Source of the DNA: Candidatus Heimdallarchaeota archaeon
Lineage (GTDB): Archaea; Asgardarchaeota; Heimdallarchaeia; Heimdallarchaeales; Heimdallarchaeaceae
Direction of reading: 5' to 3'
DNA length: 14,328 nucleotides
Assembly: GCA_030668875.1 (NCBI GenBank)
Contig: DAOVER010000066.1
Coordinates: 1-14,328, forward strand
Shown: piece after piece, positions 1-14,328 of the stretch
Layout of the letters: each line of letters opens with the position of its first letter
Numbering within the stretch: the stretch's first letter is position 1
The notes under the pieces: generated by a model
What the model was told of the DNA's origin: nothing
What the model saw: only the letters and a program-made list of their open reading frames with translations
Database searches by the model: none
Made by a program: the position numbers and the translations under genes

Positions 1-116
1 TCCCTCTTTTCTCTGTTCTGTTCCTGCTGTCACGCATCTCCTTTCTGAAGAACCTGTCACCCTCTACCGTGTGCGGCGACTCTTCAGAACGCTTACTGAG
101 GGAGGTGAGAGAGCGT
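1..116 (-). other. GC-rich structured element: candidate ncRNA or structured 5' leader of an off-window gene
   Basis: Bases 1-120 are 62/120 G+C (52%), clearly above the AT-rich flanks. There is a perfect 9-bp stem (89-81 UUCUGAAGA / 51-43 UCUUCAGAA) with an inner stem GUCGCC/GGUGAC (80-75/61-56). The inner stem has a G.U pair on the minus strand that is an A.C mismatch on the plus strand. A TATA-like element lies at 143-150. Confidence 0.35.
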
Positions 117-142
117 AAAAAAGCTTATTGCGGAAGTACTAG

Positions 143-150
143 ATATATAA
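143..150 (-). promoter_or_regulatory. TATA-box candidate for a leftward transcript starting near 118
   Basis: Minus strand reads TTATATAT, about 25 nt upstream of the edge of the GC-rich block. Confidence 0.4.
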
Positions 151-164
151 TACGATTATTAAAG

Positions 165-176
165 GAACACATGTTC
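165..176. promoter_or_regulatory. Inverted repeat GAACA-CA-TGTTC, candidate operator
   Basis: 5-bp inverted repeat with a 2-nt spacer, just upstream of the TATA candidate at 143-150 in a divergent intergenic region. Confidence 0.2.
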
Positions 177-319
177 TTAAGTACTTATTCTCAAATTGAT
201 ATAAATACCATGTAAAATTTCAGCACATTTCTTTTGCTTTTTTAATAAAACTTTCGTTTAAACTCCATTTCTTTTTGTCCTTAAGAACCTTTTTTGAGTG
301 AGTATGAGTGATTTTTTTC

Positions 320-795
320 ATGGCTTCTACAGAAAATACTTTTAATTATACTAGACCCGCTTTCTATTTAGGGTCGTTTTAATCAGTCTTGTTGGTGGTA
401 TACTTTTCTTCTTTGCTGAATTTGATTGGTGGTGGCCAGGTACTTATTCTTGGGGTTATGATTTTGCTCTCTATGGTGTGGAAGTGCCCTGGTTTGGTAA
501 GGTTATTCTTGTCTTACTTGCACTTGTTTATCTCTTTGTAGCTTTTGTTTCATTGTATAAGCTTTATCCATTCTTTAAAATCTCCAAAGATCTAGAAAAC
601 ACTCTAGAACTCTCCGCTATAATTGCAGCTATTGCAGTAGTTGGTCTAATCATCCTTGTTGCAATTATTTTTGCTATTATGGCAAGTGATTCTAACGATT
701 GGGACTTTGGAACAACCTTCTATACTGGTCTCTTAGGTGGGATAGTTACCACAGTACTTCTCTGGTTTGCTAGAAAAACTGAATCTACAAAATAA
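320..795 (+). CDS. Multi-pass membrane protein (about 4 TM helices) with an apparent -1 frameshift at 355-379
   Basis: The frame of the track ORF 478..795 is open back to 355 and encodes a hydrophobic segment (RFLFRVVLISLVGGILFFFAEFDWWWPG...). ATG 320, preceded by SD-like GAGTGA, opens MASTENTFNYTRP... in another frame that stops at 380-382. Confidence 0.6.
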
Positions 796-823
796 ATAAG
801 ATGATAAGAATTGTTATCACCTT

Positions 824-835
824 CTCCTTTTTTTC
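824..835 (+). terminator. U-tract terminator candidate CTCCTTTTTTTC
   Basis: T7 tract about 30 nt after stop 795. The identical 12-mer occurs at 12690-12701 after another stop codon. Confidence 0.45.
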
Positions 836-913
836 AATCTAACTGGATACATGCAAGAATACTCTCTAATATTACTAGGTAAGACATATTAACTGTTTAT
901 TCTTCTTAATCTC

Positions 914-1624
914 ATGAATAATGACAAAGATTCCTTCCGAATCGTGATTACTGGAGGTTCAAGTGGTATAGGTGAAGCTACTGCCTTTGAAATGGCTAAA
1001 AGTGGCCATTGTTTTTATCTAACTGGACGAAATGAAGAACGACTTCAGAAGATTGTTACTGAGCTTCATTCCTTAGGTTGTGAAGCTCACTATGGTGTTG
1101 GGGACGTAGCTGATGAGAAAATAGCTGAACAAATGTTTAGTGAAATAAAGCAAAAACTTGGTGGAGTAGATGTTCTTTTAGCAAACGCTGGTGTTGGGCA
1201 TTTTGGTAACCTTGAAGACTTATCTCTTGATCAATATGATAGTCAATTTAATACCAATGTTAGAGGAGTATTTCTCTGGATGAAGATGGTTTTACCTCTT
1301 ATGAAAGGTCAAAATAGTGGACAGATAATCGTTACTTCTTCCAGTCTTGGATTGAAAACTTCTGCCCGTTGCTCTCTTTATGCTTCAACCAAACATGCTG
1401 TTCAAGCAATGGTGTGGTGCCTTCGTGAAGAATTGAAAGGAACAGGTGTCAAAGCTGCAACAATTAACCCTGGTTCTGTTGATACTCCCTGGTTCGATGG
1501 AAAAGATGTTGATAGATCTAAGATGCTCTCTTTAACAGACATAGCCTCTGCTGTTCGTTTGATTATTGATCAGAACGATACAAGTGATATTGATCATATC
1601 CTTCTAACACCAGGTAGAAAATAA
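914..1624 (+). CDS. Classical short-chain dehydrogenase/reductase (SDR), probably NADP(H)-dependent
   Basis: TGGSSGIG (TGxxxGxG), GRN after beta2, ANAG, NTN, catalytic S...YASTK (YxxxK), PGSVDT. Confidence 0.93.
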   Translation: MNNDKDSFRIVITGGSSGIGEATAFEMAKSGHCFYLTGRNEERLQKIVTELHSLGCEAHYGVGDVADEKIAEQMFSEIKQKLGGVDVLLANAGVGHFGNLEDLSLDQYDSQFNTNVRGVFLWMKMVLPLMKGQNSGQIIVTSSSLGLKTSARCSLYASTKHAVQAMVWCLREELKGTGVKAATINPGSVDTPWFDGKDVDRSKMLSLTDIASAVRLIIDQNDTSDIDHILLTPGRK

Positions 1625-1625
1625 A

Positions 1626-1662
1626 TTACTCGAAGTAAATCTCGAGTGACCTTTATCTTTTT
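1626..1662 (+). terminator. Hairpin followed by U-rich tract after the SDR gene
   Basis: ACTCGA (1628-1633) / TCGAGT (1642-1647) inverted repeat, then CCTTTATCTTTTTT. Confidence 0.35.
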
Positions 1663-1667
1663 AAATA
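1660..1667 (+). promoter_or_regulatory. TATA box for a probably leaderless GNAT transcript
   Basis: TTTAAATA centred about 24-26 nt before ATG 1687; no SD motif. Confidence 0.45.
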
Positions 1668-1686
1668 TTTAATCTGAGCAAATTCC

Positions 1687-2745
1687 ATGCATCAAGATTG
1701 TGAGATAATGCTCTTTGATCACTCATTAGCTTCTGAAGATTTAATTGAGAAATATCATGATTTTGATGATACTATCGGTTTGGAATTGAAACCATATGAG
1801 GGATTAATGTCTAGAGATTTTCGAAGAAAAAGTTTACAGACTGTCAACCCTAATGTCGATGTTTATACTTGGCTGATTATGAACAAAGATGGGATTTCTG
1901 GACCTATCCTTGGTAGGGCAATCCTACGTGTTAAAAATTCTCAATCACCTACTTACAAACAAAATGGACACATTGCTAGAATAAGTCTTCAAGTTTTACA
2001 AGAGAACAGAAGAATGAATATTGGGTCAATTTTATTAGATGAAATAGTAAAGAAAACGGGTGAATTCCCCATTGTAAAGTTGCTTATGGTTAGTTCAAAT
2101 AACGAAATGGGTTGGCGGTTTTGTGAAAGTAAAAAAGCAAAACTTGCTTTAGAACAGACAGAATCAGTTTTAGATGTTAGCAGTGTAGACTGGGGATTGA
2201 TGACTGACTGGAGGAAACAGAAAGAAGTTCTAGCAACTACTGAAAATGTAGAATTCGTATTTTTTGAAGCTGTTCCCGAGGAGATTATTGAAGAATATGC
2301 AAGTCTCTATACAGAAACTATCAACCAACAACCTCTAGGATCCTTGCAGTTTCGAAATGTAATAACACCAGATACTTTGCGAAACAGAGCAAAAGTCTGG
2401 ATAGTTGGGGGAATGAAATGGCACACTTTAATTTCAAAAGAAAATAACGGAAAAATAAGTGGCCTAAGTGAATTTTTGTATAACCCAGAACAACCTAACA
2501 TAGTTCATCAGCTGTTAACTGGAGTTAAACAAGAATATAGAAAACGAGGGTTGGGAAAAGTATTGAAAGCAGAACTTCTATTCTTCATGAAAGATAAGTA
2601 TCCTAAGGCAAAATTCGTCTCAACATCAAATACAATTACAAATGAAGCAATGTTATCTATTAATACTCGTATGAATTTCAGAATAAAAAGCCCTCTGAGA
2701 TATTATGAATTTGATGTAGAAAAACTAAGAAAAGCTCTGAGTTAA
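1687..2745 (+). CDS. Tandem (two-domain) GNAT N-acetyltransferase
   Basis: C-terminal motif A TGVKQEYRKRGLGKVLK and NxxxNEAMLSINTRMNF. A second, degenerate motif A (VLQENRRMNIGSILL) lies in the N-terminal half. Confidence 0.85.
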   Translation: MHQDCEIMLFDHSLASEDLIEKYHDFDDTIGLELKPYEGLMSRDFRRKSLQTVNPNVDVYTWLIMNKDGISGPILGRAILRVKNSQSPTYKQNGHIARISLQVLQENRRMNIGSILLDEIVKKTGEFPIVKLLMVSSNNEMGWRFCESKKAKLALEQTESVLDVSSVDWGLMTDWRKQKEVLATTENVEFVFFEAVPEEIIEEYASLYTETINQQPLGSLQFRNVITPDTLRNRAKVWIVGGMKWHTLISKENNGKISGLSEFLYNPEQPNIVHQLLTGVKQEYRKRGLGKVLKAELLFFMKDKYPKAKFVSTSNTITNEAMLSINTRMNFRIKSPLRYYEFDVEKLRKALS

Positions 2746-2790
2746 TATATTCTGCTTTTCCTTTGAAAAAAACTAATTTGATTCTTTGCT

Positions 2791-3357
2791 TTATACTGCA
2801 TAAACTTTCTTTAACAGTACTTCTCTAGCTAAAGATTGGAAACATCTCTTTACTCCAATCCCCTCAACTGCAATTGTTTCATATATTGGAATGTTCATAC
2901 CTAAATCTAAGGCATCTACTAATTCCTTTTTATCCATTGCATCAGGAACATCTCTTTTATTTAATGCAATAACGATTGGAATTTCTCCTCCAATCTTGTT
3001 TCCTATCTCATTTTTTAGTTCTACTGCAGATTCTATATTATCAGCTAACATAGCTCTTGAAGAATCTGCAACAAATAACAACCCATCTACACCTTTCAAA
3101 ACTAGAGACCTTTGATGTCTGTGTCTTCTTTGACCAGCAACAGTGTATATGTCTAGAATGACAGAAGCTGTTGCCATAAAGGGACTAAAATCAAAGTATA
3201 TTGTCCTTCCTGAAGGATCTTCGATGCTATTTAAACCTCCCTTCTTAATCCCAGTCACATCAGTATGTAGTCTTCTAAGTAACGTAGTCTTTCCGGAAAG
3301 GCTTGGTCCAACAAAAACCAGTTTAAAATGCATTTTCCCTGAAGCGTCTTTTCTCAT
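2791..3357 (-). CDS. mglA: MglA-family small GTPase
   Basis: G1 GPSLSGKTT, switch I RTIYFDF (MglA RTLFFDF, with intrinsic Arg finger), G3 YTVAGQ (MglA YTVPGQ), LKGVDGxxFVADS, G4 NKRD, G5 ETIA. Confidence 0.9.
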   Translation of the reverse strand: MRKDASGKMHFKLVFVGPSLSGKTTLLRRLHTDVTGIKKGGLNSIEDPSGRTIYFDFSPFMATASVILDIYTVAGQRRHRHQRSLVLKGVDGLLFVADSSRAMLADNIESAVELKNEIGNKIGGEIPIVIALNKRDVPDAMDKKELVDALDLGMNIPIYETIAVEGIGVKRCFQSLAREVLLKKVYAV

Positions 3358-3416
3358 CTTACTTTGTCCTCGTCAAACGTATTGTGGCTAGTATTGTATC
3401 TATTTTATCTTCTTGT

Positions 3417-3719
3417 TTATTTCCTTTTTTCTCGTAACACTATCAATACATATTCATTTTCAGGTGCAACTAAAATTTCACCATGACTTGTATCTAGTGT
3501 GAAGAAGTTTAGGTGACCTTCTTCTAGTTCTGTTACTACTGCTTTAGCACGACCTACAAGAGAAGCAACAAGAGCAGAAACATTTTCCCTCATTTCCATA
3601 CTTAGGTTTTGTGTGCTTGATATTGGTAAACCATCATTGCTAGTAATAATCACTCCTCTAACTCCGGGATGTGATTCGAGAGATTTAAGTGTCTCTTCAA
3701 ATTGTTTTTGTGATATCAT
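3417..3719 (-). CDS. Roadblock/LC7-domain protein, dynein-light-chain-roadblock-like; MglB-position partner of the GTPase
   Basis: EETLKSLESHPGVRGVIITSNDGLPISST (alpha-beta-beta, DGxPI turn), central helix, then EILVAPENEYVLIVL. SD AGGAG 8 nt upstream. Confidence 0.9.
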   Translation of the reverse strand: MISQKQFEETLKSLESHPGVRGVIITSNDGLPISSTQNLSMEMRENVSALVASLVGRAKAVVTELEEGHLNFFTLDTSHGEILVAPENEYVLIVLREKRK

Positions 3720-3727
3720 TTATTAAT

Positions 3728-3769
3728 CTCCTTTAATGCAGCTATCTTTACAGACCATCCTTTTTATAA
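3728..3769 (-). promoter_or_regulatory. TATA box (TTATAAAA, 3769-3762) and SD (AGGAG, 3732-3728) of the roadblock-mglA operon
   Basis: Spacing predicts a short leader of about 20 nt containing the SD. Confidence 0.55.
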
Positions 3770-3963
3770 CTTATTAAGGCTGTTATATAGTTAAGACATT
3801 GTGTTTTTAAAGGCTTATGATAGTTTCTGCAATATCTAGGAAACATTGTCGTTTTTTACCATTGTGATAGTAGACATGACATTAAAAAAATTTTCACGTA
3901 TTATTTTCAATAAGATTTAATTAAAGTTATCTTCATATTGTATACACATAGAACAATTAAACT

Positions 3964-4653
3964 GTGTTGGTAACAATGCCAGATGATAAGGATTCACAAG
4001 AAAAGATTGAGGTTCTTTCGAGATTAAGATATCACAAAGTTGGATTAACTGAGAGAATGAAACAAGCATTTCTAAATGTTCCTCGTGAAGAATTTGTTCT
4101 TCAAAAACATAGAGAAAGTGCTTACATCGATACTCCTCTTCCTATTCTGGCAGGGCAAACCATTAGTGCTATTCATATGGTTATGATTTATATCTCGACA
4201 CACTGCACTGATCCCCAAATTGGAGACAAAGTACTTGAAATAGGTGCTGGAAGCGGGTATAATGCTGCTATGTTTGCTGAAATGGTTGCACCAGAGGGCA
4301 GTGAAAATCCAGGACATGTTTATGCTATCGAGATTGTACCAAAACTAGTTGAGTTTGCAAAAGAAAACATCGAAAGAACAGGATATTCAGATAGGGTTAC
4401 TATAATTGGAGGTGATGGGGGGATTGGTCTTCCTGAATATGCTCCATATGAAATTGTTTCTATTGCAGCTGCAAGTAAAAAGATTCCTCCTCCTCTTCTT
4501 GAGCAAGTTGCCATTGGTGGGAAAATGGTTCTGCCAGTTGGCAAAAGTTTCTATCAAGAGCTTATTCTTATGACAAAGGAAAAAGATGGAAGTTTCTCTG
4601 AAAAGAGTCTAGGGGGAGTTGCTTTCGTCCCACTCACAGGAAAATATGGCTAA
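3964..4653 (+). CDS. pcm: Protein-L-isoaspartate O-methyltransferase
   Basis: AFLNVPREEFV, AYIDTPLPI, GQTISAxHM, VLEIGAGSGY, GDGxxG, APYE, LLEQxxxGGKMVLPVG, FVPL. The start may be ATG 3976 rather than GTG 3964. Confidence 0.95.
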   Translation: MLVTMPDDKDSQEKIEVLSRLRYHKVGLTERMKQAFLNVPREEFVLQKHRESAYIDTPLPILAGQTISAIHMVMIYISTHCTDPQIGDKVLEIGAGSGYNAAMFAEMVAPEGSENPGHVYAIEIVPKLVEFAKENIERTGYSDRVTIIGGDGGIGLPEYAPYEIVSIAAASKKIPPPLLEQVAIGGKMVLPVGKSFYQELILMTKEKDGSFSEKSLGGVAFVPLTGKYG

Positions 4654-4689
4654 TTTCATTTATCGAAAACAAGTTTTTAAATCTTAAAA

Positions 4690-4697
4690 TATAAATA
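4690..4697 (+). promoter_or_regulatory. TATA box for a probably leaderless fen transcript
   Basis: TATAAATA about 26 nt before ATG 4720; no SD. Confidence 0.5.
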
Positions 4698-4719
4698 TTA
4701 TTGCTAGGTTGTTTAACAA

Positions 4720-5757
4720 ATGGGTGTAAAGAAAATCAGTGATTTGTTCAAAGGAACTCCAATTGAGCTAGCTCAACTAAGACAAAAGAAACTAGCTGTT
4801 GATGCACTAAATATTATTTATCAGTTCTTGGCTTCGATTAGAGGATATGATGGTAGCCTTCTTTCTGATTCAGAAGGTTATGTAACAAGTCATTTATCAG
4901 GACTTCTCTATAGAAATGCTCGGCTTTTAGAAAAAGGAATTCAACTTGCCTATGTGTTTGATGGTGCACCTTCTAAACTAAAGAGAGAAGAAATAAGGAG
5001 AAGAGCTAAAGTTAAACGGAAAGCAAGAGAAGAAATGGAGGAAGCGTTAGAACGAGGAGATATGGAGAGAGCTAGAACTGTAGCACAACGAACCAGTGTT
5101 GTTACTTCGTCAATGATCGATGATAGTAAAAAACTGTTGAGACACATGGGTATTCCTGTTATTGAAGCTCCAACTGAAGGAGAAGCTCAAGCAGCATATT
5201 TGGTTCAGAAGAAGAAAGTTTGGGCCGTTGCTTCTCAAGATTACGATAGCTTACTGTTTGGTTCTTCAACACTTGTAAGAAATCTAACCCTCTCAGGACG
5301 AAGAAAATTGCCAAAATCAAATCGATATACTACTATAAATGTAGAGGTTTTTCACCAACATGAATTGCTTAAAGCTTTGGAGCTGACTAAAGAACAGCTG
5401 GTTGATATGTCCATACTAATTGGAACCGATTTTAATCCAGATGGTGTGAAAGGAATAGGACCAAAAACTGCTTACAAATTTATCAAAAAGCACGGCACAT
5501 TGGAGGAAGCTATTATCAATGAAGAATCAGTTGTACTTGATGTAGATATTGATGCAATCCGTGAAATTTTCTTAAACCCTGAAATTAACGATGACTACAC
5601 ACTCGATTTCAAACCAATTGATGTTGAGGGTGTTACTGAATTTCTGTGTGAAGAACGTGGCTTCAATAAAGATCGCGTTGTAAGTACTTTAAACAAAGCT
5701 AGAATAGGGCAAGATTCTGCTCTTAAGCAAAAAAGTTTAGATGCTTTTTTTGGTTAA
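4720..5757 (+). CDS. fen: Flap endonuclease 1, archaeal type
   Basis: MGV start, DALNxxYQFLxxIR, VFDG, EGEAQAA, SQDYDSLLFG, GTDFN...GIGPKTA (H3TH), C-terminal PCNA PIP box QKSLDAFF (5728-5751). Confidence 0.97.
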   Translation: MGVKKISDLFKGTPIELAQLRQKKLAVDALNIIYQFLASIRGYDGSLLSDSEGYVTSHLSGLLYRNARLLEKGIQLAYVFDGAPSKLKREEIRRRAKVKRKAREEMEEALERGDMERARTVAQRTSVVTSSMIDDSKKLLRHMGIPVIEAPTEGEAQAAYLVQKKKVWAVASQDYDSLLFGSSTLVRNLTLSGRRKLPKSNRYTTINVEVFHQHELLKALELTKEQLVDMSILIGTDFNPDGVKGIGPKTAYKFIKKHGTLEEAIINEESVVLDVDIDAIREIFLNPEINDDYTLDFKPIDVEGVTEFLCEERGFNKDRVVSTLNKARIGQDSALKQKSLDAFFG

Positions 5758-5912
5758 AGGTTCTCATGAGTCATTCAATTAGCAAAATATATTCTCTCAA
5801 TTGGGAAAAGGCATTATTTCTACCTTCTTACAATTCATTCTGGAATCAGTATTTGTATTAGATTTTCTATAAAAAGCTAACATTAATATGGGAGGAATAA
5901 GGAGAAACAATC

Positions 5913-7166
5913 ATGTCTATTTCGTTCAATTCTTTTATCAAACTAGGCTCAAATAGAAATTTATCAAAAGCAGAACTTTCTCAAATTTTAGACTCCTTAA
6001 GGATTGAACAAGTCAAATATCAAGACTGGAAAGATTATCTTCTTTTGAGTTTAGGGAAAAATACTCAGAAGAAGCTTGTAAAAAAACTAGAACAAACAGG
6101 GAGTATCATCAAATTCGGTAATCTTGAGTTCAAAGTTGGAGTATCTGAGAAAAAAGCATTAAATAGCAACTTGGTAACAATTATTGATGGAATATTCTTA
6201 AAATATCTCCCTAAACGACAGAAGCAATTGAAATTGTCATTAAATATTCGGACTGATGATGTAACACAAAGATCAGAACTAAGTAAAGAAATAAGAAAAA
6301 TTATCCAAAAAATTTCTCAAGAAAAGCATCTTCCCGTAAAGGTTTTACCAACGAAAAAAGAAACTTATGAGCTTACCCCATTTGATTACAACAAAGAGAA
6401 TCTTCCAACAAGAGGAATTGAACTTAACTTATTTGTTATAAAATCGAAAATCTATTTCGGTCCAACTAGATGGGTAACTAATCCGTTTAAGGATATTAAA
6501 CAAGATGAGGAGCGACCAGTGCGTTTCTTCACCCATGGAACATCAATCAAATTATCTCGTACATTAGTAACATTAGCTAATATCCCCTATGATGGTGTAC
6601 TGTTGGATCCCTTTTGTGGTACTGGAACTATACTTATTGAGGCCTTAAAGCAAGGAATGAATGTTATAGGTGTTGACAAAGATCAAAAGTGCATTCGCTC
6701 TTCAAAGACTAACCTCCATCATTTCTCTGAGAAGTATCCCAGCCGTGAGAAAATGAAAACAAAATGGAGAGTTCGATTACATGATTCTCGGAAATTGACA
6801 GAAGCTATCCAGAAAAAGGTTGATGGGGTTGTTACTGAACCATTTTTAGGTCCTTTTCTCAAACATTTACCTCACATTGAAGAAGCACAGATGACAATGA
6901 AAAGTTTGGAACGTCTCTATACTAGAGTTTTAGCTCTATGTAAGAGTTTACTTAAAGATGGAGCCAGAATAGTTTTTATTATGCCTGAATATAATTATCC
7001 ACTAAAGAGATCTGTATATCCTAACGTCAAATCAATATGCGAAAAAACTGGTTTGACAACTTTAGAAGAAAGCAAATTTTTCAATATAAAATTCCCCATC
7101 GAGATCGGTAGAAAGCACAATGTTGTCGCAAGAAAATTATTTATTTTTGAAAGTAAAGAAAATTAA
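5913..7166 (+). CDS. THUMP-type tRNA (guanine-N2) methyltransferase-like protein (Trm11/TrmG10/Trm14 group)
   Basis: N-terminal LGxNxxLSxAEL, DEERP linker, motif I LLDPFCGTGTILIEA, GVD. Motif IV reads TEPF rather than DPPY/NPPY. SD GGAG upstream. Confidence 0.75.
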   Translation: MSISFNSFIKLGSNRNLSKAELSQILDSLRIEQVKYQDWKDYLLLSLGKNTQKKLVKKLEQTGSIIKFGNLEFKVGVSEKKALNSNLVTIIDGIFLKYLPKRQKQLKLSLNIRTDDVTQRSELSKEIRKIIQKISQEKHLPVKVLPTKKETYELTPFDYNKENLPTRGIELNLFVIKSKIYFGPTRWVTNPFKDIKQDEERPVRFFTHGTSIKLSRTLVTLANIPYDGVLLDPFCGTGTILIEALKQGMNVIGVDKDQKCIRSSKTNLHHFSEKYPSREKMKTKWRVRLHDSRKLTEAIQKKVDGVVTEPFLGPFLKHLPHIEEAQMTMKSLERLYTRVLALCKSLLKDGARIVFIMPEYNYPLKRSVYPNVKSICEKTGLTTLEESKFFNIKFPIEIGRKHNVVARKLFIFESKEN

Positions 7167-7189
7167 AAGAAGAACGTAGAAAGTTTGAA

Positions 7190-8119
7190 CTAAAACCTTA
7201 GAGTTAATTTAAGTGCTCCTTCCTTACAAGCATCTATACATTCTCCACAATTTGTACAAGCCTTATCCGTTATGTCCGTGTCATATGAAAGTATTGGTAC
7301 TTGTACTGGGCATGCTTTCTCACAAGCATCACAACCGCTTGTACATCTGTTTTTGTTTATTTTCATTCCCAGAATGCTGAATTTACTGAAGAATCCCAAT
7401 ATAACTCCTGTTGGACATAACCATCTGCAGTAGGCTCTTGGATATAGAATTATCATAACTAAAACAAATATTAGAACGGCTAATCGCAAGAAGAATAAGA
7501 ACTCCCATTGACCTATCTCTGCACCAACAGATTCACCTTGAATTCCCCATTTGAGATAATAATAGAGAGTTGCAAAAATAGTTGATACAGGATCTACAGT
7601 ACTAAATGGCATATCTCTTCCTGCTCCCCAAGCAGTTTTTGAGTGAGGATCTGAATTGGCATATGAAGTGCCGATAATAACTGACATTAATACAATGAAA
7701 ATAACTAATACTAATCCTACTTTCCCTAAGCTTTTGTTTGTAGGTCTTGAAACCTTTTTCTTTTTAGTTGGGATATAGCTAATCATATCTTGTACTGTAC
7801 CAAAGGGGCATATCCATGCACAAGATGTTTTTCCGAAAATTGAACCCACGAGAAGGAAGATTGAAATTGCAAGATATGGAAACATTCCAAATGTTATCGC
7901 ATATTGTAAAGCTTCAAATGCACTCCATACAGTTGAAAATGGTCCTCCAGAAGGATATTCAATGGGTAATATCACTGCCATTCTCCCTAAACCAAAAACA
8001 ACACCATTTATCAGTCCAAAACTTATAACTTGGACTAGTGTCCTAATTATTCGTATCCTATGTTCGCTTATTGGGCGCAGAAATACTGAAACTATATTCT
8101 TTTTTTGTTTTGTAGCCAT
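7190..8119 (-). CDS. Membrane-bound 4Fe-4S binding protein (NapH/MauN/YccM-like architecture)
   Basis: Several TM helices, CAWICPFG and YCRWLCPTG (CxxxCP), C-terminal ferredoxin motifs CTSGCDACEKACP and CTNCGECIDAC. Start placed at ATG 8119 because the track's GTG 8128 is part of the SD AGGTGA. Confidence 0.88.
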   Translation of the reverse strand: MATKQKKNIVSVFLRPISEHRIRIIRTLVQVISFGLINGVVFGLGRMAVILPIEYPSGGPFSTVWSAFEALQYAITFGMFPYLAISIFLLVGSIFGKTSCAWICPFGTVQDMISYIPTKKKKVSRPTNKSLGKVGLVLVIFIVLMSVIIGTSYANSDPHSKTAWGAGRDMPFSTVDPVSTIFATLYYYLKWGIQGESVGAEIGQWEFLFFLRLAVLIFVLVMIILYPRAYCRWLCPTGVILGFFSKFSILGMKINKNRCTSGCDACEKACPVQVPILSYDTDITDKACTNCGECIDACKEGALKLTLRF

Positions 8120-8136
8120 GGTCGTCACCTATTAAA

Positions 8137-8337
8137 TTATGTAAACGGTGGTCTTGGAAAACCTGTAGTGTAAGTATCCAGAAAGTCCACAATTTCAGAC
8201 CCAGTAAAATCTTTAATAACTGCGTAGTGTTCTATCTGGTTTTGTACGATAGCGACTAATAAGAAAATTATGCCAATAGACAAAAAGAATATCAGGTATA
8301 TCCTACTTCGAGTGTTCATAATAACTGAAGACATCAA
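8137..8337 (-). CDS. Small single-TM protein co-transcribed with the 4Fe-4S protein
   Basis: One clean hydrophobic helix (IYLIFFLSIGIIFLLVAIV) after basic residues. It ends 17 nt before the next start. The real start is probably ATG 8334 or 8319. Confidence 0.6.
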   Translation of the reverse strand: MMSSVIMNTRSRIYLIFFLSIGIIFLLVAIVQNQIEHYAVIKDFTGSEIVDFLDTYTTGFPRPPFT

Positions 8338-8425
8338 AAAAAGTACGTATTAAAAACTTTGCTTTTAATATATCTTTAACTTGAAAATATCTTACCTTGA
8401 TTAATCAAATCGTCTAATTACTGAA

Positions 8426-8752
8426 ATGAGAGTGAAGCTTCCATCTATCAAAACTCATTTAAAGTTCAACTCTACTATGTCAATTATGGGTTCTGACAGA
8501 ATGTGGAAAGTTACCCCTTTGAAATCTTGCATTTTGACAATATTAGAAAAAAGAGGTGGCGTGCTTTTGGAAGGTGATTTGGAAAATCCCCTCAGAGATA
8601 TGTACGGTGATTTCAGTAACTCTGAGCTAAATAAGGCACTGATGACTCTTGAAAATCAAGGTTTGATTCACGTTAGTTGGATTTCAAAAACGCGTAGAAG
8701 AATACATAAAATGACAAAAGATATGGGCTTCTTAGCTGTTGGAGAAGATTAA
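8426..8752 (+). CDS. Winged-helix protein upstream of cdc48
   Basis: Three helices plus wing: PLKSCILTILEK...EGDLENPL...SELNKALMTLENQGLIHVS...RRRIH. The start may be at a later ATG (8477, 8486 or 8501). Confidence 0.7.
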   Translation: MRVKLPSIKTHLKFNSTMSIMGSDRMWKVTPLKSCILTILEKRGGVLLEGDLENPLRDMYGDFSNSELNKALMTLENQGLIHVSWISKTRRRIHKMTKDMGFLAVGED

Positions 8753-8925
8753 GAACAATAAAAATTTCTTCTGTTTTGAATTATGTCAAAATCATTTCAT
8801 AGGTATTAAATACCCAAATCTACAAGTTATCTATATAAAATAGGGAATAAAACAAACCATTATAAAGTCCAAAGTTTTAGAAAAAACAAGCGTAAAAAAT
8901 GGTCAAGATTGTCTGAGGAGTTAAA

Positions 8926-11112
8926 ATGACCGATAAAGAAATTACACTGAGAGTTGCTGAAGCAAAGCAACGAGATGTTGGAAGAGGTAAAGTACGTTTA
9001 GATAGTATGGCAATGTCAAAAATTGGTGTTTCAACAGGTGACATTGTTGAAATTGTTGGCAAACGTTCTACTACTGCAGTTGCATGGCCTTCCTATCCAG
9101 AAGATTTGAAAAAAGAAATAATCCGCTGTGATGGCGTAATTAGGAGGAATGCAGGAGTTTCTTTAGGAGACAAAGTTGTTGTCAAAAAAGCAAAGGTAAG
9201 TGTTGCTAGACAAGTCACTTTAGCTCCAGAACAAATGTCAGTTAATATTGATTTTAGTTTCGAAAATTTTGTTAAAAGAAAACTCCTTGGTCAACCACTT
9301 TCAAGAAAAGATACAGTTTTAATACCAATTCTTGGTAGAGCAATTCCTTTCAATGTTGTTACTACAGTCCCTTCTGGAATTGTAGTTGTTACTGAAAGTA
9401 CACAGCTCAAAGTAGCTGAAAAACCATTACTTGAAGGAGAAAAAACTGCTCCCAGCATTTCCTATGAGGATATTGGGGGTTTACACCAAGAAATTCTGAA
9501 GATACGAGAGATGGTAGAACTTCCACTTAAGTTCCCGCAGCTTTTCGAAAAACTAGGTATTGATCCTCCTAAAGGTGTTCTACTCCATGGACCTCCTGGT
9601 TGTGGAAAAACCTTAGTTGCTAGAGCTGTAGCAAATGAATCAGCTGCTCACTTCATTGTTATTAATGGTCCTGAAATCATGTCAAAGTTCTATGGGGAAT
9701 CAGAGCAACGTTTACGAAGTATTTTCAAAGATGCTGAAGATAATTCTCCAAGTATTGTGTTTATTGATGAATTGGATGCAATAGCACCAAAACGAGAAGA
9801 CGTTACAGGTGAGGTTGAAAGAAGAGTAGTTGCACAACTACTAGCATTAATGGATGGGTTAGTAGCACGCGGACAAGTAATTGTTATAGGTGCAACTAAT
9901 CGACCCAATGCGGTTGATCCTGCTCTTCGTCGTCCAGGACGATTTGATCGAGAAATCGAAATACATGTTCCAGACAGAGATAGTAGAGAAGAGATTCTTC
10001 TTATTCATACACGTGGAATGCCTTTAACTCAAGATGTTGATTTGAAAGCATTAGCAAACGTTACTCACGGTTATGTTGGTGCAGATTTAGAAGCTCTGGC
10101 TCGTGAGGCTGCAATGAAAACTCTAAGAAGGGTTTTACCCTCTGTTAATCTTAGTGAAGAAAGTATACCCTCTGAAGTTCTAGACCAACTTGAAGTTACA
10201 CATGACGACTTTCTATCTGGTTTTAAGGAAATTACTCCAACAGCAATAAGAGAAGTTTATATAGAATCACCAAATGTCCCCTGGACTGATGTTGGTGGTC
10301 TTGCAAGTGTGATAACTGATATTCGAGAAGCTATAGAATGGCCTCTTACCCAAAAGGATGCTTTCAAAAGAATAGGTATCAAACCTCCTCGCGGCATATT
10401 ACTTTATGGGCCTCCTGGTTGTGGGAAAACACTACTAGCAAAAGCTGTTGCTACAGAATCTGAAGCTAATTTCATCTCTATTAAAGGTCCTGAAGTACTT
10501 TCAAAATGGGTAGGTGAAAGTGAGAAAGCTATCCGTGAAGTTTTCCGCAAAGCCCGACTTGCTGCACCATCAATTATTTTCTTCGATGAAATTGATTCTT
10601 TAATTCCTGTGAGAGGGACGTCTTCTGACAGCAATGTCACAGAGAGAGTTATCAGTCAATTATTAACAGAACTAGATGGATTGGAAGAGTTAAAGGATAT
10701 AGTAGTTCTTGCAGCTACAAATAGACCAGATATAGTCGATCCAGCAGTTTTGAGACCTGGCAGATTTGACAGATTGATTTTTGTAAATCCTCCTAACCAA
10801 AAAGGTCGAATGCAAATATTCAAGGTTTATACACGCAATATGCCACTCGCATCCTCTGTTTCAATAAAAGAATTGGCATCAGTTACCGATGGTTTTGTTG
10901 GTAGTGATATTGAAGCATTATGCAGAGAAGCTGGTATGCTTGCCCTTCGAGAAAGTTTTGAAATTAAAACTGTAACTATGAGTCATTTCAACACTGCTCT
11001 TGAAAAAATACACCCCACCGTTACACCTGATGTTATTAAATACTACGAAAAAATCAGTGAAAAGTTCAAGCGTCCAAGTCAAATTACAAGTCCAAAGATT
11101 GGTTACACCTAA
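8926..11112 (+). CDS. cdc48: Cdc48/p97/VAT AAA+ ATPase
   Basis: N-domain ([19 protein letters not shown]), D1 GPPGCGKT / IDELD / ATNRP / [10 protein letters not shown]2 GPPGCGKT / FDEID / RPGRFD. C-terminus IGYT. SD GAGGAG at 8915-8920. Confidence 0.97.
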
Positions 11113-11237
11113 GTAACCCCTACTCTTTTTCTTTAACTCTGTGTCATAACAAGTTCCCTTATTGTCTCGATATGATACTTAAAATAGATTTTTAAGCGTA
11201 TTGAGTCAATTGTAATATTGTAGGGTTGTGCAGACAT

Positions 11238-12089
11238 ATGATTGGATTCTACATAATAAACAAGAATGAAATGGAAGTGCTTTTTTGTCGTCCCCATACG
11301 ATTCAAAAAAAGGATCAAGAGGTAGATGATATAGTTAGATTTTTACTTCAATTTTACTCTGAAGCTGAAAAGCACTCCTCCTTAGATGAACTTCAAGTTT
11401 TGATGTTTGGTAACACAAAAATTCTGTTTAAGCATAAACACTCATTTTTATTTGTCTTGCTAAGCCCTCCAAATTATTCAACAGAAATGATTTCTTCTCA
11501 ATTATTTTTCTTCATGAAACTTTTTTTGAATGCCTTCGAAATTACAGATGAAACTAGTTCAACTGAATTCCTTAAAGAATTAGAAGGGATTAGGAGACGT
11601 GAAGTGTCAGAGTCACTCTCTCACTCTTTCTTGTTGTGGAATGTTTTAGATCTTCACATTGAGGATATTGATAAAAGGAATCTGGTAGAGGTGTTTGAAA
11701 ACATCTTAAATTCTATCTGGGTTGGGATAAAGAGTTATATTGAAGAAAGAAACTCTATGAAAATTGAAGATTTTTATAAGAAGTACAGTGAAAATTTACA
11801 AGCATATTTAGATGAAAATTATTCTTATCTAAAGGAAGTTTATTCTCTGACGCTTGAAGAGGGGTTTGATATTAGTGAAGTTGATACAAAGAAAATTACA
11901 ACAAGCGAAATCAAAAGAGAATTTATTTGTTTTCTTAAGAATATGTTAGATTGTTTGCAAAAGGAAATGGGAGAAGAAGAACTAAGGTACATAATTGCTC
12001 AGAAAGTACCTGTGGCAATGAAAGTAGAGTGGGAGAGGTTGAATGGATTAGGTTTAATTCAAGATTTATTAGATGTGGTATGGAGATAA
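11238..12089 (+). CDS. Protein with an N-terminal longin-like domain and a helical C-terminal region
   Basis: First ~100 aa follow the longin beta-beta-alpha-beta-beta-beta-alpha order (MIGFYIINK..VLF; helix; LQVLMFGNTKILFKHKHSFLFVLL; helix). Start placed at ATG 11238 (track GTG 11226). Confidence 0.65.
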   Translation: MIGFYIINKNEMEVLFCRPHTIQKKDQEVDDIVRFLLQFYSEAEKHSSLDELQVLMFGNTKILFKHKHSFLFVLLSPPNYSTEMISSQLFFFMKLFLNAFEITDETSSTEFLKELEGIRRREVSESLSHSFLLWNVLDLHIEDIDKRNLVEVFENILNSIWVGIKSYIEERNSMKIEDFYKKYSENLQAYLDENYSYLKEVYSLTLEEGFDISEVDTKKITTSEIKREFICFLKNMLDCLQKEMGEEELRYIIAQKVPVAMKVEWERLNGLGLIQDLLDVVWR

Positions 12090-12093
12090 AAAG

Positions 12094-12681
12094 ATGAATC
12101 AGTTACAAAAAATAATATGTGTTGGCTCAGCATTTGTTGGAAAGACTTCGTTAGCTAGAAGATTTACGTTAAATACTTTTATTCACAGCTACATACCAAC
12201 ATTAGGCGTAAGTTGGTTAACAAAAACATTAACATTTACACCAGAACAATTGAATGAGAACATGCTAAAAAAAATATATACAGATCCTGAAACTATCAGG
12301 TTATCTTGCTGGGATACAGGTGGTCAAGAAATGTTCACTTATCTTCGACCCAAATACTATGTAGGTGCTACATGTGCGATAATAGTTTTTGATATCACTA
12401 ATCAAAACTCATTTGATGATGTTGACATCTGGACAAATGAAGTTCTTTCTAGAGTACCTGATATCCCTATTGTCCTATGTGGAAACAAATACGATCTGAA
12501 AGATGCTCGAGCAGTATCTCGTGATGATGCTATTGCATTTGCGAAACTTCACCGATTTGATTATGTTGAAACTTCAGCTCTTTCAGCTTATAATGTTGAT
12601 AAACTATTCTTCCATGCTGGACGATTGGGAAAGCAATTTAGCGAAGAACATCTTAAATTTAGAACAGAGTATATGCTTTAG
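12094..12681 (+). CDS. Rab-like (Ras superfamily) small GTPase without a C-terminal prenylation motif
   Basis: G1 GSAFVGKTS, G2 YIPTLGV, G3 WDTGGQE, YYVGA, IVFDIT, G4 GNKYD, G5 ETSA. ATG 12094 has SD GGAG (12082-12085) and lies 4 nt after the longin-gene stop. Confidence 0.92.
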   Translation: MNQLQKIICVGSAFVGKTSLARRFTLNTFIHSYIPTLGVSWLTKTLTFTPEQLNENMLKKIYTDPETIRLSCWDTGGQEMFTYLRPKYYVGATCAIIVFDITNQNSFDDVDIWTNEVLSRVPDIPIVLCGNKYDLKDARAVSRDDAIAFAKLHRFDYVETSALSAYNVDKLFFHAGRLGKQFSEEHLKFRTEYML

Positions 12682-12689
12682 AAAACATC

Positions 12690-12712
12690 CTCCTTTTTTT
12701 CTACTTTCTTTC
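12690..12712 (+). terminator. U-tract terminator candidate after the longin-Rab operon
   Basis: CTCCTTTTTTTCTACTTTCTTTC, 9 nt after the stop. Confidence 0.5.
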
Positions 12713-12727
12713 AACTAATAAGAATCC

Positions 12728-12735
12728 TTTATAAT
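12728..12735 (+). promoter_or_regulatory. TATA box for a probably leaderless CBS-HPF transcript
   Basis: TTTATAAT about 26 nt before ATG 12757; no SD. Confidence 0.45.
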
Positions 12736-12756
12736 CATAAAAAATTGTATTAGCTT

Positions 12757-13917
12757 ATGAGTACTGATATATCGATTGTTTCTGATTTTACTTCAATCAA
12801 TCTCGATGAACCACTGTCAAAAGTGTTTGAATATTTTAAGGATAATGTACGAGAAGTTCTAGTTTTTGACGAAAAGGGCATCTTCTTTGGATATCTTACA
12901 AAGAAGAACATAACAAGGCAATCTAGAATACAACCTGGTTCTAAAGTAGCCAACTTGCTCCAAAAGGTTCCAACCGTGATGAGGAACTCTACTTTTGATG
13001 ATATAGCGAGAGCTCTTTTGTCTGCAAAGATAAACACCGTTCCTATCGAAGACAATGGGAAAATCATTGGTGTATATAGGGACATTGATGTTATTAGATC
13101 CTCAGCTGCATTGTTTAAGGATAAAACTGTGAAAGATATGATGACTCCGAATCCTATTTGTGTAAGCCCTGATACTACGGCGGCAAGACTAATTGCAATC
13201 TCTAGGACAAATAATATCTCAAGGGCACCTGTAGTCGATGAAAATAATTACTTATTGGGCATTGTAAGTCCTCATGATATGGCTGAGCTTCTAATTCCTT
13301 CCTTTCCCACTAAACAAACTAGGGGTGATAGATCAGCTGTGCAGCATACTCCTCTTACAGCGCCTATTAGAGAACTTATGACTGAAGAAGTGGTTAGTTG
13401 TAAGGAAAACGAATTGGTTCTTGAAGCTATAAGTAAGCTTTACAAAAACAATCACAAAACGCTAATTATAATAAATGAAGAAAATCACCCTGTTGGAGTT
13501 TTAACAACTACAGACCTTCTTGAAACAGTAAGCATCCCCCCTAAGACTGAAGGATACTATGTGAGAGTAATTGGAGATGTTGATGACGAAGATATGGAAC
13601 CAATCATTGAGATGGGAGTAGATCTTGTAAAGAAATTTGCTTCAGTGATTGGTAATTCTGGACAATTATTTATCCATGCTAAATCTATTCCAAAGAAGAA
13701 GTTTAGAGGTTTCGTTCTCTATCAAATAAGGTTGAGAATATCCACCAACAAAGGTCATACGTATGTTTCAAAGGCAGAAGGATATGGAGTCTTCAGCGCA
13801 TACGCAGTCGCCCTAGATAGGTTAGAAAGAGAGATTATCTCTGAAAGAGAATTAGCGATACAATCTAGACAAACTGGCAGTGAAAGATACCTTCTTGATG
13901 AACTTGAAGAAGTCTAA
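12757..13917 (+). CDS. Four CBS domains plus a C-terminal HPF/RaiA-like domain; candidate archaeal ribosome hibernation factor (Hib-type)
   Basis: CBS motifs (VPIEDNGKIIGV, VKDMMTPNPICV, APVVDENNYLLGIVS, IRELMTEEVV, IINEENHPVGVLT). C-terminal beta-alpha-beta-beta-beta-alpha domain ends in AEGYGVFSAYAVALDRLEREI, echoing HPF AxxxDxYxAIDxAxDKLERQ. Confidence 0.75.
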   Translation: MSTDISIVSDFTSINLDEPLSKVFEYFKDNVREVLVFDEKGIFFGYLTKKNITRQSRIQPGSKVANLLQKVPTVMRNSTFDDIARALLSAKINTVPIEDNGKIIGVYRDIDVIRSSAALFKDKTVKDMMTPNPICVSPDTTAARLIAISRTNNISRAPVVDENNYLLGIVSPHDMAELLIPSFPTKQTRGDRSAVQHTPLTAPIRELMTEEVVSCKENELVLEAISKLYKNNHKTLIIINEENHPVGVLTTTDLLETVSIPPKTEGYYVRVIGDVDDEDMEPIIEMGVDLVKKFASVIGNSGQLFIHAKSIPKKKFRGFVLYQIRLRISTNKGHTYVSKAEGYGVFSAYAVALDRLEREIISERELAIQSRQTGSERYLLDELEEV

Positions 13918-13921
13918 CCTT

Positions 13922-13950
13922 CTTATTTTTTTCATTTTTCAGCTATTTTC
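13922..13950 (+). terminator. Pyrimidine/U-rich terminator region
   Basis: CTTATTTTTTTCATTTTTCAGCTATTTTC directly after stop 13917, in a convergent intergenic region. Confidence 0.5.
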
Positions 13951-14127
13951 CTCTATTTGTTGCTTATATCCTTCAAACTAATATCATGCAACCTTAGTTC
14001 TGTTAGCGAATTACGTTTAGACAAATAAAAGAAGTTTTGAATCCAAATTTTCTTTTCCAAAAGCGCAAGTTTCTTTAGTTTGGAGCATTTTGAAATTTCT
14101 TTTAAATCCACTCTTATACTTTTACAA

Positions 14128-14328
14128 TCAAAGTTTCCTTTTCTTGTAGAGAAGGAGGACTGGTATAACAATAACTGGTAGGATGATCAGACTCATCAAT
14201 GCCCAATACGGACTCGTAGTATGAACTCGTTCCAATTGTTCTGTTAGAGGGTATTTATCCACTGCTTCTGCCTGACCTGCAATCTTGTATGATCCTTTTC
14301 CTTCATAATCTTTCCAGTAATTTCCCCT
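14128..14328 (-). CDS. 3' end of a surface/secreted protein with a C-terminal membrane anchor (5' part outside the window)
   Basis: Open frame from the window edge: RGNYWKDYEGKGSYKIAGQAEAVDKYPLTEQLERVHTTSPYWALMSLIILPVIVIPVLLLYKKRKL*, TGA at 14130-14128. Not in the ORF track because no start codon is in view. Confidence 0.8.
   Translation of the reverse strand, partial: RGNYWKDYEGKGSYKIAGQAEAVDKYPLTEQLERVHTTSPYWALMSLIILPVIVIPVLLLYKKRKL

Follow-up and report, generated by a model that had tools for sequence, protein, structure and literature searches.

A two-gene unit of a Heimdallarchaeaceae genome couples a longin-domain protein to a Rab-like GTPase, and the two products most likely form a cognate regulator-GTPase pair. 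The unit lies on contig DAOVER010000066.1 of a Candidatus Heimdallarchaeota archaeon (GenBank assembly GCA_030668875.1; 3.2 Mb, 92% complete), of which we analyzed positions 1 to 14,328 of the forward strand (henceforth termed the window, 14,328 nucleotides, nt). It encodes a longin protein of 283 amino acids (aa; P0001) and a GTPase of 195 aa (P0002). We consider a direct interaction of the two proteins probable, with P0002 as the switch and P0001 as its regulator or partner. The more detailed reading, in which the longin protein docks the GTPase and controls its nucleotide state, with a role as guanine nucleotide exchange factor (GEF) favored over other activities, has as a whole a probability of roughly 45%.

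Asgard genomes contain dozens of Rab-, Arf- and Rag-like GTPases as well as longin and roadblock proteins, and these are rarely arranged in operons (Tran et al. 2024), so that a matching of regulators to switches is lacking. Since the pair described here is strictly coupled and co-inherited, the genome itself supplies such a match, and with it a ready-made pair for biochemistry. Exchange activity in vitro would provide direct evidence for Rab activation by longins before the rise of eukaryotes, and a wider Asgard family to which P0001 is related would then provide candidate regulators for unpaired GTPases. Should there be no activity, the unit would add to the conserved Asgard gene pairs without an assigned role.

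A coupled and conserved gene pair

The features of the pair and of the adjoining cdc48 gene are as follows (window coordinates, strand, description).

11238-12089, +, longin protein gene (P0001, 283 aa), ATG 11238, TAA 12087-12089
11238..11591, +, longin domain, aa 1-118 of P0001, from the AlphaFold2 (AF2) topology and structural matches
11595..12089, +, C-terminal helical domain, aa 120-283 of P0001, then the stop codon, from the AF2 model
12082..12087, +, Shine-Dalgarno-like GGAGAT, 8 nt before the GTPase ATG, from the sequence
12094-12681, +, Rab-like GTPase gene (P0002, 195 aa), stop TAG 12679-12681 included, Pfam Ras
12229..12273, +, GTPase interswitch insert, ~15 residues between beta2 and beta3, from alignments
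12694..12700, +, T7 tract, 13 nt past the end of the GTPase gene, probable archaeal terminator of the pair
11184..11196, +, A/T-rich TATA-like element ATAGATTTTTAAG, ~45 nt ahead of the longin ATG, probable promoter of both genes (conservation)
11126..11134, +, T-rich tract T5-C-T3, 14 nt past the cdc48 stop, probable cdc48 termination signal
8926..11112, +, cdc48/p97-type double-AAA ATPase, 728 aa (Pfam CDC48_N, CDC48_2 and two AAA)

The longin gene and the GTPase gene are separated by 4 nt, and the GGAG at 12082-12085 lies within the final Trp-Arg codons of the longin gene. Stop codon at 12089, embedded Shine-Dalgarno sequence and GTPase ATG at 12094 are found where a first-pass annotation of this DNA, made from its sequence, had placed them. 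Homologues of the longin protein start with MIGFY, MMGFY or MKGFY in the alignment, which matches the ATG at 11238. An in-frame ATG at 12073 was rejected as start of the GTPase, being unused in the orthologues, all of which begin MNQLQKI. The junction shows an identical pattern (TGG-AGR/CGG-stop, then 2-5 nt, then ATG or GTG) at all 19 orthologous loci listed, and GGAG(G/A)T or GGCGGTGA occupies the Shine-Dalgarno position at each of them. Given this recurrence in 19 orthologous loci, the arrangement of the pair is far beyond chance.

Signals on either side suggest that the pair is a transcription unit of its own, separate from cdc48, as judged from the element AAATTTTTAAG upstream and the T-rich tract after cdc48. 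AAATTTTTAAG is the form that the TATA-like element takes in the orthologues, and it is kept upstream of most orthologous loci; T-rich stretches after cdc48 recur at the equivalent place. Oligo-T tracts are the usual archaeal termination signal. The shared U-tract terminator proposed in the first-pass annotation is borne out as far as the T7 tract goes; a scan for bacterial-type terminators found no hairpin 3' of the pair, and "terminator" therefore refers here to the oligo-T tract only.

A family profile search recovered the longin gene in 20 of the 27 other Heimdallarchaeaceae genomes and, with the same Heimdallarchaeaceae profile, in none of 272 genomes from 29 other Asgard families. Only 13 representatives of this longin family occur among 1.84 billion proteins. 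The order cdc48, longin gene, GTPase gene is kept in all 20 Heimdallarchaeaceae species genomes that have the longin gene, so that the GTPase directly follows throughout and the expected conservation of the pair is borne out. The longin partner evolves fastest, since the lowest identity to the window's proteins across these genomes drops to 29% for it, compared with 58% for the GTPase and 81% for Cdc48. We inspected five of the seven genomes without a longin match. Two of them (88% and 91% complete) lack the GTPase orthologue as well. In two others the longin gene is missing from the assembly because the contig ends inside the GTPase orthologue (loci L027 and L028, i.e., G127:C91 and G183:C3), and the fifth has only a 43%-identical GTPase match that is probably a paralogue.

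The conserved neighborhood extends beyond the pair and comprises FEN1, a methyltransferase, an Fe-S protein, cdc48, the longin gene, the GTPase gene and a CBS protein. Both proteins might thus be co-expressed members of a housekeeping block without direct interaction, or might serve Cdc48 and the proteasome independently. The whole neighborhood is syntenic in the family, so that the linkage could be inherited gene order, the link to cdc48 is as constant as that to the GTPase, and the complex prediction described below is weak. Against this, the 2-5 nt coupling and the embedded Shine-Dalgarno sequence persist at loci whose downstream genes differ (at least five of them have no CBS gene), the T-rich tract of cdc48 and the pair's own TATA-like element set cdc48 apart from the pair, and longin and roadblock folds recurrently serve as platforms for GTPases (PMC10933270). 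We regard an absence of direct interaction as rather unlikely.

The Rab-like GTPase

P0002 matches Pfam Ras at E 2.8e-45 (154 bits; cut-off 21.6), and among solved structures it is closest to Rab6, Ypt1/Rab1 and Rab11, Ran being nearly as good (E 1e-30 to 1e-27), which agrees with the Rab-like partner assumed in the first-pass annotation. The G motifs comprise G1 GSAFVGKT, the switch-I threonine T36, G3 DTGGQ with the catalytic glutamine kept, G4 NKYD and G5 TSA. In some orthologues (L020, P0101-P0103) DTGAQE replaces DTGGQE in G3, i.e., the switch-II glycine is an alanine.

The RabF-like words LGVSW, RLSCW, YYVGA and IVFDIT, pointed out earlier, are all present. The five RabF motifs read IGVDF, KLQIW, RFrsiT, YYRGA and LVYDIT (a consensus reportedly given by Pereira-Leal and Seabra in 2000); the words in P0002 match them partially and RabF3 is poor (MFTYLR). 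No prenylation cysteine occurs in the last 60 residues of P0002, which ends KFRTEYML, and this tail is conserved as KFRKEY[IL][IL] among orthologues. Because the RabF words are partial and a C-terminal cysteine is absent, the sequence identifies P0002 as Rab-like, not as a proven Rab.

Three features distinguish the orthogroup, the conserved tail being one of them. The interswitch insert (aa 46-60) is kept among the Heimdallarchaeaceae orthologues and absent in Rab6 and the other Asgard Rab-like proteins aligned. With Ala and Phe where Ras has G12 and G13, the P-loop GSAFVGKT (12124-12147) hardly varies within the orthogroup and is likewise absent from the other Asgard Rab-like proteins aligned. 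Among 38 Ras-family matches in the window's genome, the closest paralogue shares only 40% identity with P0002.

The longin protein

No Pfam family matches P0001 above its cut-off. The nearest is PF19036 (Fuz_longin_1, the first longin domain of FUZ, MON1 and HPS1) with a sub-threshold 21.7 bits (E 2.4e-4; gathering cut-off 26.1 bits), and this signal recurs at E<=0.01 in 16 of 35 members of the Heimdallarchaeaceae longin family, none of them above the cut-off. In the whole-protein AF2 model (29-sequence alignment; predicted local distance difference test, pLDDT, 77), residues 1-118 follow the order strand-strand-helix-strand-strand-strand-helix-helix without an N-terminal helix (E3-8, E13-16, H24-43, E53-57, E60-67, E70-76, H82-99, H105-117). 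The best structures by VIA-align are BLOC-3 (Z 12.2), Sec22 (11.5), CPLANE (11.0), VAMP7 (10.8), Mon1-Ccz1 (10.5) and TRAPP sedlin (10.4); three of these top six, BLOC-3, CPLANE and Mon1-Ccz1, are tri-longin Rab GEF complexes. Longin chains overall reach Z 8-12.2 over 109-130 aligned residues with root-mean-square deviations of 2.7-3.8, and Foldseek agrees on the fold with weaker statistics. Modeled topology and structural matches together confirm the longin fold that had been proposed for the N-terminal region. A Roadblock/LC7 domain of the MglB type was considered and rejected: the model has no helix ahead of its first strand, which starts at residue 3, the chains of MglB and of Asgard roadblocks rank below the longins (Z 7.3-7.5), and Robl_LC7 gave no Pfam match to P0001 at E<=1.

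The single longin domain is followed by a helical domain with a single hairpin. Folded alone, this C-terminal domain (aa 120-283, 164 aa) is predicted to form seven helices and one two-strand beta-hairpin (AF2, pLDDT 84). It includes the best conserved stretch of P0001 (aa 120-165), and E151 and W265-x-R267 within it are invariant superfamily-wide in the alignments. Foldseek against the PDB gave no match for this domain (best E 0.63), VIA-align against 48,161 chains did not rise above the noise level of helical models (best Z 5.9), and sequence profiles against the PDB returned marginal helical matches only. In the ESM-Atlas, a search by features with residues 120-283 gave no usable match. A search by shape yielded leads only, namely a 278-aa Thorarchaeota cluster of the same architecture (template modeling score, TM, 0.69) and, at a moderate TM of 0.55-0.57, a bacterial DUF4388/PatA_N cluster and other unnamed clusters.

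Two candidate identities of the helical domain were examined. TRAPPC3 (Bet3/V4R) was rejected, as seven helices with two short strands and no conserved cysteine do not fit it; TRAPPC3/V4R proteins have four helices on a four-stranded sheet and, in archaeal and V4R forms, a Cys4 zinc site (PMC10933270). No TRAPPC3 chain is among the structural matches listed for the domain. For a DENN-type domain, Pfam DENN, uDENN, dDENN and Folliculin_C gave no match in P0001 or the family members scanned, and DENN and FLCN chains align by VIA-align to residues 1-146 of P0001 only, i.e., to the longin part. DENN chains are also missing from the structural matches listed for the C-terminal domain, a listing that does not exclude a DENN fold.

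These data bear on the possibility that P0001 is a GTPase-activating protein (GAP) of P0002, akin to roadblock MglB acting on MglA or to the longin GAPs FLCN, NPRL2 and SMCR8. The longins of FLCN-FNIP (Z 9.2) and C9orf72-SMCR8 (7.7) are among the fold matches. The C-terminal domain offers two arginines, Arg267, invariant across the whole superfamily, and R147, nearly invariant in the Heimdall branch; in the longin domain, R/K18 comes after strand 2. In mglBA, which is the best-known operon of this platform-GTPase kind in prokaryotes, GAP activity resides in the platform protein (PMC9481161). The GAP-type longins FLCN, NPRL2 and SMCR8 are marked by a Gly-Pro (GP) motif where the loop leading to strand 2 ends (PMC12290439). 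This motif is absent from all 35 aligned longin family sequences, and the loop reads N-K-x-x-M/L-E/D in the Heimdall branch; Pfam Folliculin, NPRL2 and Robl_LC7 gave no match in P0001 or the family members scanned. Finally, by analogy with Ras, the Ala and bulky Phe of the P-loop should hinder the entry of an arginine finger. A GAP role for P0001 thus appears improbable.

A wider Asgard family of longin proteins

Two marginal full-length profile matches, P0074 from Njordarchaeota and P0075, served as seeds of a wider profile, which matches 389 of 399 Asgard genomes. Outside Heimdallarchaeia, many of the matches listed span the full length (positions 1-271) at E 1e-30 to 1e-100, and at least several genomes carry two to three full-length paralogues. 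The best matches in Heimdallarchaeia are much weaker (E 1e-7 to 1e-18). Aligned directly by hhalign, the Heimdall family and the wider profile match with 96.9% probability (E 2e-10, 257 columns). By sequence, P0001 is a divergent full-length branch of an Asgard-wide family of ~275-aa proteins that combine a Mon1-type longin with a helical domain. In line with this, all nine wider-family members tested give a Fuz_longin_1 signal, one of them above the cut-off at 29.8 bits, and MON1A is the best natural PDB match of the combined profile (E 0.008). P0001 is the sole full-length member in its genome, where other matches cover the longin part only, and five genomes of other Heimdallarchaeia families also show matches to the longin part only.

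P0075, from another Asgard lineage and 21% identical to P0001 over its full length, likewise precedes a Rab-like GTPase; this GTPase has a polybasic tail, and the neighborhood is unrelated and lacks cdc48. This pair (L024) was rejected as orthologous, its GTPase being only the fourth-best match to P0002 in that genome. At three wider-family loci of another Asgard family (G050, G058 and G041), full-length paralogues form tandem pairs on the same strand, an arrangement that would suit a heterodimer:

L033 526-2329, one strand, tandem ~275-aa longin paralogues
L034 1495-3613, one strand, tandem ~275-aa longin paralogues
L035 347-2355, one strand, tandem ~275-aa longin paralogues

On a more speculative note, the ~275-aa family may be the prokaryotic stock from which tri-longin Rab GEF subunits arose, the operon the one instance of a member hard-wired to a Rab-like client, and the helical domain a new GTPase-regulatory or targeting fold that works with the interswitch insert. 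We consider this combination unlikely.

Binding and mechanism

Complex prediction for a 1:1 assembly of P0001 and P0002, with alignments for both chains, gave an ipSAE of 0.57 (runs 0.55-0.59), with 0.00 as the best of three controls; the runs share at least 60% of their contacts and the partner pLDDT is at least 80. The tool's verdict is "weak support". Of 80 solved complexes, 58 attain its mark, as do 2 of 110 mismatched pairs, and scores that attain it at 0.60 or under come from only 7 of the 80 solved complexes and from both mismatches that passed. Given the strong genomic prior, we take the prediction as mild support for binding, bearing in mind that likeness to solved longin-Rab complexes may account for part of the score. 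The first-pass annotation had proposed that the longin protein regulates this GTPase, and the complex so predicted lends weak in-silico support to direct binding. GEF activity and the localization role suggested there for the helical C-terminal region are hypothetical.

In the scheme that we favor, for which we infer binding, GEF direction, dimerization and co-transcription, the two genes would act as a single unit, coupled in translation and provided with a promoter and an oligo-T terminator of its own. P0001 would be the cognate partner of P0002, which would dock on the longin platform, and P0001 would probably be a dimer, as in other longin/roadblock platforms. It would control the nucleotide state of the GTPase, and by analogy with first longin domains of the Fuz/Mon1/HPS1 type, nucleotide exchange is the favored activity, to which we assign a little less than an even chance. 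The helical domain may complete the GTPase-binding surface or join the pair to a further component. Exchange is preferred over GAP activity because the longin resembles the Mon1/Fuzzy/HPS1 type in both sequence and structure, because the GP motif of GAP longins is absent, and because the P-loop residues, judging from Ras, should impede an arginine finger.

P0001 could instead be a GTP-state-specific effector, scaffold or localization factor without catalysis, as SRX of SR-alpha is on SR-beta-GTP or Ragulator on the Rags. SRX-SR-beta complexes are indeed among its structural matches (5ck3 at Z 9.2, 1nrj at Z 8.7), P0002 has its own catalytic glutamine and all G motifs and may cycle unaided, and the helical domain, which carries no catalytic signature, could be an adaptor surface; the conservation of the pair applies equally to such a role. 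A strict 1:1 coupled operon with fast co-divergence is, however, more typical of cognate regulators, of which MglB-MglA is an example, and the sequence affinity of P0001 is to GEF-type longins. A purely effector- or scaffold-like role is unlikely in our estimate.

Several observations count against cognate regulation by nucleotide exchange. SNARE and adaptin longins score as high against P0001 as GEF longins (VIA-align), and the fold alone is therefore no sign of exchange activity. Tri-longin GEFs are heterodimers of three-longin subunits, and P0001 has one longin and a single full-length copy. The invariant R267 could equally be a GAP finger. An ipSAE of 0.57 falls in a band in which, according to the tool, wrong predictions outnumber right ones unless there is a good prior. 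In the wider family, a GTPase lies within 1.5 kb at only one of 20 loci, and there on the opposite strand (convergent), so that a general GTPase linkage of the family was rejected. The GTPase next to P0075 is not the reciprocal best match of P0002 and lies 209 nt away, for which reason this co-location may be chance. The designation "minimal Rab-GEF module" in the first-pass annotation is sound as regards the longin domain and the Rab-like partner, and too specific for a protein with one longin in place of three and a GTPase without a prenylation cysteine.

Neighboring genes

The proximity of cdc48 had been linked earlier to a role of p97 in membrane remodeling, with the caveat that it may be incidental. 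The linkage itself is constant in the family. The separate signals around cdc48, which make it look like another transcription unit, and the distant pair without cdc48 argue for inherited synteny. Cdc48 ends in PKIGYT (window 11098-11109; IGFT or IGFS in orthologues), an HbYX-like tail; such tails dock archaeal Cdc48 on the 20S proteasome. Downstream of the pair, the protein encoded at 12757-13917 has four CBS repeats (Pfam E 3.6e-39) and ~120 C-terminal residues without a Pfam match, for which the first-pass annotation had suggested an HPF-like domain.

The window holds a second platform-GTPase pair at 2791-3719 on the minus strand. Its first gene encodes a Roadblock/LC7 protein of 100 aa (Pfam E 1.4e-20), and 59 nt downstream of it lies the gene of an Arf/MglA-like GTPase of 188 aa (Pfam Arf E 1.1e-13). 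Elsewhere in the same genome (C71:33959-36010, minus strand), two open reading frames 4 nt apart may be a further longin-GTPase unit: one of 329 aa, whose C-terminal part gives a longin-type match, and one of 354 aa, which matches small GTPases weakly.

Comparison with known systems

The closest known systems include the tri-longin Rab GEFs Mon1-Ccz1, BLOC-3 (HPS1-HPS4) and CPLANE (Fuzzy-Inturned), which share with P0001 an N-terminal longin domain and a Rab-like client; their first longin domain, PF19036, is the only recurrent Pfam signal of the P0001 family. Each of their subunits has three longins, whereas P0001 combines one longin with a non-longin helical domain, and they are heterodimeric, whereas P0001, as a single full-length copy per genome, could at best form a homodimer. 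Clients of Mon1-Ccz1 use a switch-I lysine, which P0002 lacks (Y-I-P-T), as it lacks a prenylation site.

Operons of the MglB-MglA type, known from bacteria and archaea, have the same order, in which the cognate small GTPase follows a platform protein of the longin/roadblock superfold; the roadblock pair at 2791-3719 of the window is of this type. MglB is a roadblock protein, whereas P0001 has the longin permutation (strand first), an extra 164-aa domain and no Robl_LC7 match. P0002 is Rab-like in comparison with MglA, and, MglB being a GAP, the direction of regulation likely differs. The longin GAPs FLCN-FNIP, GATOR1 (NPRL2-NPRL3) and C9orf72-SMCR8 also illustrate a longin acting on a small GTPase, and Heimdall-group relatives of them exist (PMC12290439). 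They carry the GP motif and a DENN-type C-terminal domain, whereas P0001 has no GP motif and gave no DENN-type match.

Within Asgard archaea, the occurrence of longins, roadblocks and Rab-like GTPases is well established (Tran et al. 2024, PMC10933270). The Heimdall longin-TRAPPC3 fusion protein described in the same study resembles P0001 in joining an N-terminal longin to a second domain of ~160 aa, which in the fusion is a TRAPPC3 fold of four helices, a four-strand sheet and a zinc site, in contrast to the seven helices and hairpin without Cys4 predicted for P0001. GTPases of strain MK-D1 generally lie outside operons with longin or roadblock genes (PMC10933270), whereas P0002 is part of a strict longin operon. 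Another operon predicted in Asgard archaea (Liu et al., bioRxiv 10.1101/2020.10.19.343400) encodes a DENN-domain protein together with a LAMTOR1-like roadblock and a Rab-like GTPase, and likewise unites such a GTPase with a candidate GEF from longin/roadblock-type parts. It has three genes, whereas the unit reported here has two and is confined to one family, with no roadblock gene or DENN domain detected. We found no description of this operon or of the ~275-aa family in the literature. The pair is thus a variant of a known Asgard longin/roadblock-GTPase theme, and its link to the wider ~275-aa family is new.

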